Both the position numbers and the translations under genes were made by a program. A DNA stretch of 64,000 bases from Escherichia coli (lineage in GTDB: Bacteria; Pseudomonadota; Gammaproteobacteria; Enterobacterales; Enterobacteriaceae). Shown one piece after another: positions 196 to 1,698 of the stretch (position 1 is the first letter of the stretch; every line of letters starts with the position of its first letter). Location of the stretch: the NCBI RefSeq assembly GCF_003334335.1, contig NZ_QOWQ01000009.1; one strand, 5' to 3'. The notes under the pieces were generated by a model. It made no database searches. It worked only from the letters and a program-made list of their open reading frames with translations, and was not told where the DNA came from.

Positions 196-1698
196 ATGAA
201 TATCAGAAAACTGTTTTGTCCGGGCAATACACCCCGGATTTTATTGTTTTTATTCTTTTTTGTTGTTTCTGTCATAACCACAATTGCATGCGGATACACT
301 GAGAAGAATGCCACCGGGAATGTGTTGCTGCTGTTCCTTCTTCTGCTCCTTGCACACAGAAATACCCTCACATCCATTACAGCGCTGTTATTTCTGTTCT
401 GTTGTGCACTGTATGCGCCTGCCGGTATGACGTACGGTAAAATCAACAACAGTTTTATTGTCGCGTTGTTGCAGACCACAACTGATGAGGCAGCGGAGTT
501 TACCGGGATGATTCCTGTTTATCATTTTCTGGTCAGTGCCGCGATTCTGGTATTCATGGTGATTTTCTGGCGAACACACCACCGCGGTCACCGTAACTGG
601 CTGGCACTGCTGCTGTTCGTATTATGCTCAGTAAACAGCTGGCCGTTGCGGATGGTTAAAGGAACTGTTGTGGGGACAACTGACACATTGCGTGAAATGC
701 AGCGTTATAAACAACTGAATCAGCACGGGGCTGACAACTGGAAAATCCTGCCGGGTGTACCGTTGTATGACACGATTGTTATCGTCACTGGTGAGAGTGT
801 GCGCAGGGATTATATGTCGGTATATGGCTATCCCGTGCCAACCACACCGTGGCTGAATACTGCTCCCGGTTTATTTATTGACGGCTATACATCGGCAGCA
901 GCCAGTACCGTACCTTCCCTGAGCCGGACACTGATTTATGACTATGAGCAGAACCCTGATTCCGGCAACAACGTGGTGGCGCTGGCAGCAAAAGCAGGAT
1001 ACAGCACATGGTGGATATCCAATCAGGGAAAACTGGGAGAGCATGACACACGCATCTCTGTTATTGCTTCTGATGCGGAGCATACCGTTTTCCTCAAGAA
1101 AGGCAGCTTTGCTTCCCGTAAAACGGATGACATGTTGTTGTTACAGGAAACAGAACGTGCACTGGCGGATAAATCCTCTCCGAAGGTGATATTCCTGCAC
1201 ATGATGGGGTCTCATCCGAACCCGTGTGACCGGCTTCACTCCTGGCCGAATCATTACCTGGATCAGTATCCCCGAAAGGTTGCCTGTTACCTCGCCAGCA
1301 TCAGTAAACTGGATAACTTTCTCGGTCAGCTTGATGGTATCCTTCGCCGGCATCCCCGTCATTTCGCCATGCTTTACTTTTCTGACCATGGGATGTCGGT
1401 CAGCGACAGTGCTAATCCTGTTCATCATGATGGTCATATACAAGGAGGCTACAGCGTTCCCCTGATTATTACCGCCAGTGACATCATGTCTCATCAGTCC
1501 GTCAGCAGAAAAATCAGTGCCCGTCATTTCGCAGGTATTTTTCAGTGGATGACCGGCATTCGTACTGAAAATATACCGCCATTCAATCCGCTGACAGACG
1601 AAGATAATGAACCCGTTATTGTTTTTAACGGAGAGAAAAATGTGCCGGCAGACAGTCTGAAACCGCAGCCTCTGATTCTTCCGGTCAAGGGAAAATAA
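196..1698 (+). CDS. Sulfatase-family phosphoethanolamine transferase-like inner-membrane protein (EptA/OpgE/YjgX-like), island cargo
   Basis: 500-aa ORF with a hydrophobic multi-helix N-terminus and a C-terminal domain carrying motifs typical of pEtN transferases (IVIVTGESVRRDYMSVYGY, HMMGSHPNP, FSDHG). Start codon is uncertain because no clear Shine-Dalgarno precedes 196. Confidence 0.75.
   Translation: MNIRKLFCPGNTPRILLFLFFFVVSVITTIACGYTEKNATGNVLLLFLLLLLAHRNTLTSITALLFLFCCALYAPAGMTYGKINNSFIVALLQTTTDEAAEFTGMIPVYHFLVSAAILVFMVIFWRTHHRGHRNWLALLLFVLCSVNSWPLRMVKGTVVGTTDTLREMQRYKQLNQHGADNWKILPGVPLYDTIVIVTGESVRRDYMSVYGYPVPTTPWLNTAPGLFIDGYTSAAASTVPSLSRTLIYDYEQNPDSGNNVVALAAKAGYSTWWISNQGKLGEHDTRISVIASDAEHTVFLKKGSFASRKTDDMLLLQETERALADKSSPKVIFLHMMGSHPNPCDRLHSWPNHYLDQYPRKVACYLASISKLDNFLGQLDGILRRHPRHFAMLYFSDHGMSVSDSANPVHHDGHIQGGYSVPLIITASDIMSHQSVSRKISARHFAGIFQWMTGIRTENIPPFNPLTDEDNEPVIVFNGEKNVPADSLKPQPLILPVKGK

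Follow-up and report, generated by a model that had tools for sequence, protein, structure and literature searches.

Sequence and phylogeny place an island-borne phosphoethanolamine transferase gene of Escherichia coli beside OpgE rather than the MCR enzymes

Introduction

Is a phosphoethanolamine (pEtN) transferase gene carried on a mobile island of Escherichia coli a hidden counterpart of the mcr colistin-resistance genes, or does it belong to another branch of the same superfamily? The question is raised by an open reading frame (ORF) of 500 aa with an ATG start, at positions 196–1698 of the plus strand of a 64,000-nucleotide stretch of E. coli DNA (contig NZ_QOWQ01000009.1), hereafter the window, which is chromosomal sequence at pheU. 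The original prediction described a sulfatase-superfamily pEtN-transferase homologue, shorter than EptA or MCR, carried as cargo next to an integrase and of potential relevance to mcr. It also held that the substrate cannot be read from the sequence, and with this we agree.

The gene and its upstream region

The ORF (196–1698, plus strand) was assigned as a YjgX-family, OpgE-like phosphoethanolamine transferase (PET) gene from the ORF list, profile searches, BLASTP, a tree and a structural model. Residues 193–452 of the product match the Pfam Sulfatase family (PF00884, E 4.4e-36) and residues 44–145 give a weak match to EptA_B_N (E 1e-4), which bears out the superfamily membership first proposed. 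The protein is laid out as a membrane domain with a bridging helix (approximately aa 1–177) followed by a periplasmic catalytic domain (approximately aa 190–500). The product is shorter than EptA and MCR, as predicted, but members of its clade range from 487 to 514 aa and 500 aa is typical of them; the alignment confines the shortfall to the N-terminal membrane domain and linker, and by this comparison the length is not a truncation. The gene is already known and catalogued: the same coding sequence occurs in strain N10 as WP_001554651.1, with the RefSeq label 'phosphoethanolamine transferase', so that the exact protein stands in RefSeq. Related database entries labelled 'lipid A phosphoethanolamine transferase' bear automatic names.

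The first bases of the window (1–77, plus strand) are the right end of the IS256-family element IS1414; a megablast search with bases 1–110 returned annotated IS1414 transposase ends at 90–99% identity. The transposase ORF is co-oriented with the PET gene and stops at a TGA at 40–42, the boundary of the element lies at approximately 77–86, and identity with strain N10 begins only at base 78. IS1414 inserted about 118 bp 5' of the PET start codon and left intact a putative promoter, a sigma-70-like match (TTCACA-16 nt-TATTAT, 10/12; 131–158, plus strand) found by consensus scan alone and situated 38 nt 5' of the start codon. No obvious Shine-Dalgarno sequence precedes this start codon. We weighed an upstream mini-ORF (145–174), which has a good Shine-Dalgarno sequence, as a possible leader peptide and rejected it, as transcription from the sole promoter-like site at 131–158 would initiate within it.

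Intact copies of the PET gene are usually preceded by a gene for an outer membrane protein (OMP) of the Tia/Hek adhesin family, a place held in the window by the IS1414 end. A terminator-like scan detected a hairpin with an 11-bp stem and T-rich flanks at 99–123 (no strand assigned), and in N10 the same hairpin lies 3' of the OMP stop codon in the OMP–PET intergenic region. Judged from its position, this hairpin probably serves to terminate the Tia/Hek-family OMP gene found upstream in other strains, and it has been retained in the window.

An integrase-proximal module in tRNA-associated islands

The integration site of the island is pheU, a tRNA-Phe (GAA) gene identified with ARAGORN at 4820–4895 on the minus strand, to the right of which the annotated context shows the core genes dicD(yjdC)-dsbD-cutA-dcuA. 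The tRNA gene is abutted by a gene for a P4-type tyrosine integrase of 421 aa (3357–4622, minus strand; NCBIfam NF007246, 249 bits; 'tyrosine-type recombinase/integrase' in RefSeq). The PET gene was therefore rightly described as island cargo with an integrase nearby, but the two are not directly adjacent: they stand 1.66 kb apart, with two ORFs between them. One is a small hypothetical ORF of 76 aa (1685–1915, minus strand; present in the ORF list and hypothetical in RefSeq), which shares 14 nt with the 3' end of the PET gene, matches no family, is frameshifted in O91:H21 and is absent from K99S. The other encodes a TPR-repeat protein of 357 aa (2058–3131, minus strand), taken from the ORF list and designated 'ShiA-like' in its cluster names, for which the RefSeq annotation takes an internal start and a length of 347 aa (2058–3101); among the loci compared, this gene is a pseudogene in one (L012) and missing from another (L013).

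GC content over bases 1–4000 is 45.9%, against about 50–56% for most of the window; the 5-kb island block is present in 359 of 5,426 genomes, and the PET gene is polymorphic among strains. The low GC and the strain polymorphism both fit island DNA, and the locus accordingly displays the features of tRNA-island cargo, namely a tyrosine integrase beside a tRNA gene, atypical GC and presence/absence polymorphism. A repeat search over 1–5200 yielded nothing meaningful, the far-end att repeat of the island lying beyond the window. The PET gene is integrase-proximal and convergent with the integrase at pheU (the window), at pheV and at leuX (K-12), in the order tRNA, integrase, (ShiA-like TPR protein), PET gene, Tia/Hek-family OMP gene and variable cargo. 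It is part of a stable integrase-proximal module of islands with P4-type integrases at pheU, pheV, leuX and selC. The gene had been reported earlier at pheU/pheV/selC and pap islands (PMC6174562, PMC8946752), and a genome-wide association study of bloodstream infection associated pap islands with the urinary portal of entry (PMC8946752).

The recurrent OMP neighbor, whose cluster carries the names Tia and Hek and which gives only a 25-bit local match with OmpX, invites the question of whether the two products act together. At least 80% of the OMP and PET block is present in no fewer than 1,078 E. coli genomes, the same OMP-to-PET pair is found in a mobile element of Salmonella with a homologue of 58% identity, and the pair recurs on a metagenome contig at 57% identity. 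Proteins are among the acceptors of PETs (reviewed in PMC10525099), and by analogy with PptA of Neisseria, which acts on pilin, and EptC of Campylobacter, which acts on FlgG, the enzyme might add pEtN to the co-encoded Tia/Hek/Hra-family adhesin as part of an adhesin-maturation cassette. The conserved pairing and the adhesin names of the OMP cluster speak for this idea, which we nevertheless judge very unlikely. Homologues at 39–59% identity stand without the OMP gene in Erwinia, E. lignolyticus, Pantoea and two metagenome contigs, as does the 52% plasmid paralogue described below; the OMP and PET genes probably do not form one operon because they are separated by a terminator-like hairpin and a further promoter-like site; IS1414 splits the pair in the window, yet the PET ORF is intact; and the nearest characterized relative is glycan-directed.

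Intact yjgX: distribution and selection

The K-12 pseudogene yjgX (b4575) matches nucleotides 317–1498 of the PET gene with 91% nucleotide identity over 1,182 nt; it lacks the first ~316 nt through 5' truncation and is frameshifted by a 1-bp deletion. By this alignment, the PET gene is the intact form of yjgX. Near-full copies (at least 80% of the gene) are present in 1,451 of 5,426 complete E. coli genomes (~27%), and a match of any kind in 3,030, about half of which have only truncated copies; truncated K-12-like alleles are common. The gene is thus dispensable, since so many of the genomes with a match, K-12 included, carry nothing but a truncated copy. opgE, by comparison, occupies its own locus in 5,421 of the 5,426 genomes (99.9%). 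opgE proper is a core gene and the PET gene an accessory paralogue.

Such erosion might indicate a decaying hitchhiker with no present function, kept merely since recombination seldom removes DNA at the integrase end. Besides the truncated alleles and the K-12 copy, this explanation can draw on the adjacent TPR gene and small ORF, which are pseudogenes or missing in other strains, on the IS insertion just 5' of the gene in the window, and on a K-12 yjgX deletion that had no defensin phenotype (PMC4808223), though that copy was already a pseudogene. Selection data argue otherwise. Between intact alleles from different loci, dN/dS was 0.149, 0.227 and 0.194, values that come from three allele pairs only and that indicate a functional gene. 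The ORF of the window is intact, retains all catalytic residues and yields a confident fold prediction, and the family is conserved across genera at 39–60% identity, so that a gene in mere decay seems doubtful at best. With thousands of homologues (the 90% protein cluster that holds the product has 8,941 members) and this range of dN/dS, the ORF is a real gene, far beyond chance.

A further paralogue of 511–514 aa (cluster P0034) is plasmid-borne, next to epeA on large E. coli IncF/IncI plasmids. Phage records contained no homologue of at least 60% identity or covering at least 80% of the query; a phage origin was rejected on the lack of a close phage-record homologue, and the PHROG matches were of no known function. 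Membership in a defence system was likewise rejected, PADLOC returning no hits for the PET, TPR, small-ORF or OMP proteins. A literature search found no functional work on intact YjgX, nor any link to Tia/Hek.

Placement within the pEtN transferase superfamily

Among the E. coli K-12 paralogues, BLASTP scores fall from OpgE (234 bits; 30% identity over the full length) through YhbX (104), EptC (93) and EptB (55) to EptA (43.5), and OpgE and the PET protein are reciprocal best hits; against the catalytic domain of MCR-1 the score is 22 bits. Nothing in an NCBIfam search exceeded its cut-off. The MCR models gave 23–31 bits against cut-offs of 1225–1250, the EptA models 39–60 against 561–660 and the generic lipid A PET domain model 71 against 500; the EptC/CptA models, the top NCBIfam match all the same, gave 107 bits against 404 and 83 against 900. 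The EptB models were likewise far short of their cut-offs, and the matches included no model for OpgE or YjgX. As no NCBIfam family was scored above cut-off, the classification rests on BLASTP and the tree.

The tree was built by neighbor-joining, not maximum likelihood, and without Neisseria Lpt3/Lpt6/PptA, Pasteurella PetG/PetL/PetK, Campylobacter EptC, Shigella Opt/Lpt-O and H. ducreyi PtdA/PtdB. A first bootstrap run, rooted on BcsG, gave deep support of only 33–53%, owing to the long BcsG branch and the rogue taxa P0094 and P0071; a second run was made without these three, and splits were tested ignoring rogues. In that run the PET protein and OpgE were split from EptA, EptB, EptC, YhbX and MCR-1 (NZ_KP347127.1) with 98.5% bootstrap support, EptA, MCR-1 and EptB were grouped with the PET protein outside (100%), and the YjgX core clade of ~500-aa proteins formed a clade of its own (99.5%) beside an OpgE clade (82.5%); the OpgE clade and the wider ~500-aa group were poorly separated from each other (54%). 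The PET protein is sister to the OpgE clade and not within it, and its gene sits in the pheU island instead of the core ompX-opgE-mntS locus; on these two counts it falls outside the OpgE orthologous group. BLASTP and the tree assign the PET to the YjgX clade, which is sister to OpgE but accessory, and bring it nearest to OpgE, not to the MCR enzymes. Grouping with OpgE-type enzymes counts in part against the original prediction by its own terms, although the clade is accessory and not housekeeping.

Catalytic residues and predicted fold

The catalytic threonine and metal ligands, whose conservation had been singled out for checking, are all present: E200, T238, H335, H340, D397, H398 and H411 of the PET protein align to E246, T285, H390, H395, D465, H466 and H478 of MCR-1, whose functions are described in PMC8593676. 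T238 would be the nucleophile, and E200, D397, H398, H340 and H411 the metal and phosphate ligands. The donor-site pair T94 and E98 is present, there is a single conserved Cys pair (C344 and C364), and E98, E200, T238, H335, H340, D397, H398 and C364 are unchanged in 39 clade members. An AF2 model (pLDDT 89.3) contains five transmembrane helices (14–31, 39–53, 57–80, 108–127 and 135–146) and a bridging helix (149–177). In Foldseek searches the model superposed on full-length MCR-1 (9nww) and NmEptA (5fgn) over 537–550 aligned columns, and the nearest fold for the periplasmic domain was EcEptC (6a82; TM-score 0.72, normalised by target length). Pfam, AF2 and Foldseek therefore agree on an EptA-like architecture, in which several membrane helices at the N-terminus precede a periplasmic domain with the sulfatase fold. 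The alignment with MCR-1 supplies the Thr nucleophile, Zn-binding Glu/Asp/His and phosphate-binding His of EptA-like membrane pEtN transferases.

Differences appear along the active-site tunnel. MCR-1 K333 and E468, both essential for MCR-1 function (PMC8593676), are replaced in the alignment by G281 and M400, as in OpgE. The tunnel-lining pattern Q277/G278/G281/M400, at MCR-1 positions 329/330/333/468, is shared with OpgE (Q/G/G/hydrophobic). These substitutions bear directly on the suggestion of mcr relevance, under which the enzyme would modify lipid A or the inner core and lower susceptibility to polymyxins or cationic peptides as a mobile mcr-like determinant. The superfamily and architecture held in common with MCR-1 and EptA, the conserved catalytic core, the mobile island location and the lipid A label of some relatives, automatic as it is, all point in that direction. 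Set against them are the scores, with EptA the most distant paralogue and OpgE the closest, the NCBIfam results far below the MCR and EptA cut-offs, the 98.5% split in the tree and the loss of both tunnel residues. An intact gene in about 27% of E. coli genomes is also at odds with the general view of polymyxin resistance; to our knowledge, resistance at that level is not attributed to E. coli. Taken together, this evidence removes nearly all plausibility from the mcr reading.

Proposed activity and candidate acceptors

The best explanation, and in our judgment a probable one, is that the product is a functional pEtN transferase that lies in the inner membrane, faces the periplasm and depends on zinc, and that it belongs to the YjgX clade, the sister lineage of OpgE, and is not of mcr type. 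By extension from what is known of the family, the five transmembrane helices would anchor the enzyme in the inner membrane, where Thr238, activated by Zn held by E200, D397 and H398, would attack the phosphate of outer-leaflet phosphatidylethanolamine. Diacylglycerol would be released, a pEtN-Thr238 intermediate formed, and the pEtN passed on to a periplasmic acceptor in a ping-pong reaction. This acceptor is most likely a glycan hydroxyl and not a phosphate of lipid A, because the tunnel pattern is OpgE-like and MCR-1 K333 and E468 are missing; the osmoregulated periplasmic glucans (OPGs) are the default candidate. OpgE has been shown experimentally to be an OPG pEtN transferase (PMC3818809), and the role of pEtN on periplasmic glucans is not known (PMC3818809, PMC10525099). 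The choice of acceptor would follow from kinship with OpgE alone, at 30% identity and with the YjgX core clade standing separate (99.5%). With OpgE present in E. coli, another enzyme for pEtN transfer to OPGs seems redundant, which favors a different acceptor.

That redundancy leads to a further alternative, in which the enzyme would place pEtN on the LPS core, O-antigen, enterobacterial common antigen (ECA) or capsule instead of OPGs, and in doing so alter antigenicity, phage adsorption or adhesin exposure. For an 'envelope-conversion' enzyme of this kind there are analogies in the serotype-converting genes that temperate phages carry close to the integrase and in the O-antigen pEtN transferase that Shigella flexneri has on a plasmid. 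An accessory gene kept integrase-proximal in roughly 27% of E. coli genomes would suit it, as would the separation of its clade from OpgE, the adjoining surface adhesin gene and the 52% paralogue beside epeA on large virulence-type plasmids; where OpgE serves the OPGs in every genome, a paralogue under purifying selection could plausibly have another acceptor. Yet no glycosyltransferase, O-antigen or capsule gene is consistently adjacent in the loci compared, no close homologue was found in phage genomes, PADLOC gave no match, and the nearest characterized relative works on soluble glucans. We hold this alternative as tentative and on the unlikely side.

It is enticing to speculate further that the Tia/Hek adhesin and the YjgX-type transferase constitute a functional two-gene cassette in islands of E. 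coli and Salmonella, at the end that carries the integrase, with pEtN placed on the adhesin or on a nearby surface glycan to tune adhesion, invasion, or immune or phage recognition. If true, this would give the OpgE lineage an acceptor class that is new to it and would make the pair a mobile 'envelope-conversion' module, but the chance of it appears slim. For the OpgE-related transferase that we favor, the practical consequence is that a possible false alarm can be removed: the island-borne gene is not a cryptic mcr-type colistin-resistance gene, an mcr-like role being unlikely on the sequence evidence, but an OpgE-lineage accessory paralogue that about one in four E. coli genomes carries intact. 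The point of interest lies in the target of intact YjgX, kept under purifying selection beside a Tia/Hek adhesin gene on the integrase side of pathogenicity islands. A second OpgE-lineage enzyme with a different distribution could also help in the study of pEtN on periplasmic glucans.

Comparison with known systems

A close counterpart of the window gene is yjgX of the cryptic leuX-intB element of K-12, a member of the same family that has the corresponding position next to, and is likewise convergent with, a P4-type integrase beside a tRNA gene; the K-12 copy lies at leuX and is broken, whereas that of the window lies at pheU and is intact. The P0034 plasmid paralogue belongs to the same YjgX core clade, with 52% identity over 94% of the length and the same catalytic and tunnel residues, but adjoins epeA and has no upstream Tia/Hek OMP gene. 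OpgE (YbiP), the nearest characterized relative, is 30% identical across a span that includes the membrane domain and has the tunnel pattern and single Cys pair in common; it is a 527-aa core protein encoded at the ompX-opgE locus, in contrast to the 500-aa accessory, island-borne PET. EptC/CptA, the E. coli pEtN transferase for heptose I of the LPS core, is the best match among solved structures in both sequence and fold for the periplasmic domain, but aligns through the catalytic domain alone and falls in a separate clade. EptA and MCR-1, finally, share with the PET the two-domain layout, the Thr nucleophile, the Zn ligands and the donor-site T/E pair, and differ in a membrane domain about 45 residues longer and in K333 and E468, which the PET has not kept. 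Published structures of EptA and MCR-1 contain three disulfide-forming Cys pairs, against the one conserved pair of the PET.

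Identity, distribution and genomic setting

The gene at 196-1698 (+ strand) starts with ATG in the ORF list and encodes a 500-aa protein. Pfam assigns residues 193-452 to a Sulfatase domain (E 4.4e-36) and gives a weak hit to the membrane-domain family EptA_B_N over residues 44-145, confirming the original prediction of a sulfatase-family phosphoethanolamine (pEtN) transferase homologue. It is an already known, widespread accessory gene. Strain N10 is 100% identical to window bases 78-5000, its counterpart CDS (WP_001554651.1) being annotated 'phosphoethanolamine transferase', and 68 contigs in the public collection carry the exact window protein, whose 90% cluster has 8,941 members. 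By megablast with the gene alone, 3,030 of 5,426 complete E. coli genomes gave matches, and 1,451 of these hold at least 80% of the gene. K-12 matches only nucleotides 317-1498 of the gene (91%), at a locus annotated as the pseudogene yjgX (b4575), located beside intB and leuX, which has lost its 5' end and bears a 1-bp deletion; the window thus carries a yjgX-family allele that is intact. Because opgE itself was found in 5,421 of the 5,426 genomes, yjgX is an accessory paralogue rather than opgE at a new location.

On the opposite strand, a 76-aa ORF annotated as hypothetical in RefSeq (1685-1915) overlaps the 3' end of the transferase gene by 14 nt; it is frameshifted in O91:H21, matched nothing in NCBIfam, PHROGs or PADLOC, and may not be a genuine gene. 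Next come a gene for a 357-aa TPR-repeat protein (2058-3131, - strand), with 'ShiA-like protein' among the UniRef names of its cluster, and a 421-aa integrase (3357-4622, - strand; NCBIfam NF007246, 249 bits). The TPR gene has an internal stop in O91:H21 and is absent from strain K99S, so the module can do without it. The core genes beyond tRNA-Phe (4820-4895, - strand), namely dicD/yjdC, dsbD, cutA, dcuA and those after them, show that the site is E. coli pheU. The integrase association originally proposed is correct to the extent that an integrase is present in a low-GC island (45.9% in the first 4 kb, whereas most of the window has about 50-56%), but the two genes stand 1.66 kb apart rather than directly side by side. 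Cargo past the module varies among N10, O91:H21 and K99S, comprising type I R-M and CDI, ato genes, or TerB/helicase genes. PADLOC returned no match, and none of the phage genomes searched held a close homologue of the transferase. The longest window ORF for dsbD (5614-7392, - strand) is 592 aa with an upstream ATG, and the RefSeq gene of the otherwise identical N10 is 1,698 nt (565 aa), a difference of start-codon ambiguity only.

Researchers have described 'putative opgE' genes beside phage-type integrases on the pap island, which they count as part of that same island and whose unitigs showed an association with the portal of entry of bloodstream infections (PMC8946752).

Pairing with an outer-membrane-protein gene

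The first bases of the window (1 to about 77-86) are the right end of an IS1414 element (IS256 family), whose transposase ORF ends at 40-42 and which inserted about 118 bp upstream of the transferase start codon. A terminator-like hairpin (99-123) and then a putative sigma-70-like site, TTCACA-16-TATTAT (131-158), precede the gene. Where the window shows the IS end, the otherwise identical N10 carries a Tia/Hek-family outer-membrane-protein (OMP) gene, with cluster names 'Tia invasion determinant' and 'adhesin/virulence factor Hek'. Co-oriented OMP genes of 246-248 aa precede the transferase gene in N10 (19198-19944 of its locus) and at pheV in O91:H21 (8079-8819) and K99S (8109-8849). A total of 1,078 E. 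coli genomes contain at least 80% of the OMP-transferase block, and further genomes have a divergent tia allele upstream of the transferase gene. The same pair accompanies the 57-58% homologues of Salmonella (OMP at 7077-7811 of its locus, bringing the beta-barrel lengths to 244-248 aa) and a metagenome contig, inside mobile elements holding DUF932, antirestriction, RadC, CbtA/CbeA and integrase genes. The two genes form a conserved module at the integrase-proximal end of the islands.

In Erwinia, E. lignolyticus, Pantoea and other contigs, homologues sharing 39-59% identity occur without the OMP gene, mostly in ordinary chromosomal settings, and a 52% plasmid paralogue likewise lacks it upstream. 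The pairing therefore marks a mobile subclade, not the enzyme family, which argues against the OMP as an obligatory acceptor. In K-12, opgE also adjoins a small beta-barrel OMP gene, ompX, but convergently (the two together at 5451-7598 of that locus). The island OMP has only a 25-bit local match to OmpX, and the resemblance might reflect ancient paralogy or plain coincidence.

Placement in the OpgE lineage

The window protein belongs to the OpgE lineage. It scores below every NCBIfam curated cut-off: CptA 107 vs 404, lipid A PET domain 71 vs 500, EptA 39-60 vs 561-660, EptB 50 vs 493, and MCR models 23-31 vs 1225-1250. Among K-12 paralogues, BLASTP ranks OpgE first (234 bits, 30% identity, full length including the membrane domain), followed by YhbX (104), EptC (93), EptB (55) and EptA (43.5 bits), and the reverse search returns the window protein as OpgE's best match. 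In a neighbour-joining tree (56 sequences, 480 columns), it falls among proteins of ~500 aa whose clade adjoins that of OpgE. With BcsG and one rogue sequence removed, 200 bootstraps gave 98.5% for the split of window protein and OpgE from EptA, EptB, MCR-1, YhbX and EptC, 100% for EptA+MCR-1+EptB, 99.5% for the YjgX core clade and 82.5% for the OpgE clade; support for separating OpgE from the wider ~500-aa group was only 54%. BLASTP and phylogeny thus agree on an OpgE-lineage enzyme, albeit an accessory one and not core like opgE. The lineage is large: with clustering at 50% identity, exhaustive searching recovered 296 clusters for a cut-off of E <= 1e-30, and the number rises to 2,285 for E <= 1e-10.

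The 52% paralogue, a member of the YjgX core clade, resides on NZ_CP027453.1 (7908-9443 of the extracted locus) and about 134 other large E. coli plasmids, of IncF/IncI type, close to the serine-protease autotransporter gene epeA. A 480-aa pEtN transferase (1216-2658) is also carried by the 5.5-kb E. coli plasmid pHFQ3, whose only other annotated genes encode a replication initiator, a DNA-binding protein and traD. It groups near EptC-like sequences in the tree and might act on O-antigen, as does the pEtN transferase Opt/Lpt-O of Shigella.

Active site and predicted function

The catalytic Thr and metal ligands singled out for checking are conserved: nucleophile T238 with E200, H335, H340, D397, H398 and H411, aligned respectively with T285 and E246, H390, H395, D465, H466 and H478 of MCR-1. 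The donor-site pair T94/E98 corresponds to MCR-1 T112/E116, and E98, E200, T238, H335, H340, D397, H398 and C364 are invariant in 39 clade members. The protein is indeed shorter than EptA or MCR, as originally remarked, but members of its clade span 487-514 aa and the gene is not truncated. Its catalytic Glu lies at position 200 (225 in OpgE, 244-256 in EptA/B/C and MCR-1), yet 300 residues follow it, in line with the 295-332 of these relatives, confining the shortness to the membrane domain and linker. A confident AlphaFold2 model (pLDDT 89.3, pTM 0.83) has a compatible topology, with five membrane helices, two short periplasmic helices bearing T94 and E98, a long bridging helix and an alpha/beta catalytic domain. 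The best Foldseek match was the EcEptC periplasmic domain (6a82; TM-score 0.72, normalised by the target's length), and 537-550 columns aligned to full-length MCR-1 (9nww) and NmEptA (5fgn). dN/dS values of the window allele against the two intact pheV alleles (0.149 and 0.227), and between those alleles (0.194), indicate purifying selection.

From family knowledge (PMC8593676), Zn-activated T238 would attack phosphatidylethanolamine, releasing diacylglycerol, and a periplasmic acceptor would then receive the pEtN by a ping-pong mechanism. Experimentally, the pEtN transferase of osmoregulated periplasmic glucans (OPGs) is OpgE, whose loss in K-12, where yjgX is dead, leaves no pEtN on OPGs (PMC3818809). 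A K-12 yjgX deletion surfaced in a defensin screen as a false positive (PMC4808223), and our literature search found no functional study of intact YjgX. Judged by relatedness, the acceptor would be a glycan rather than lipid A, with OPGs the default candidate and another envelope glycan the main alternative.

Comparison with characterized enzymes bears on the hint of a role like that of the mobile mcr genes, a concern that is not supported by the MCR-model scores or by the protein's position on the OpgE side of the bootstrap split. The residues lining the pEtN tunnel also resemble those of OpgE (Q277/G278/G281/M400 vs Q302/G303/G306/L425), whereas MCR-1 has N329/S330/K333/E468 at these positions, of which K333 and E468, opposite G281 and M400, were rated essential for function in a deep mutational scan (PMC8593676).
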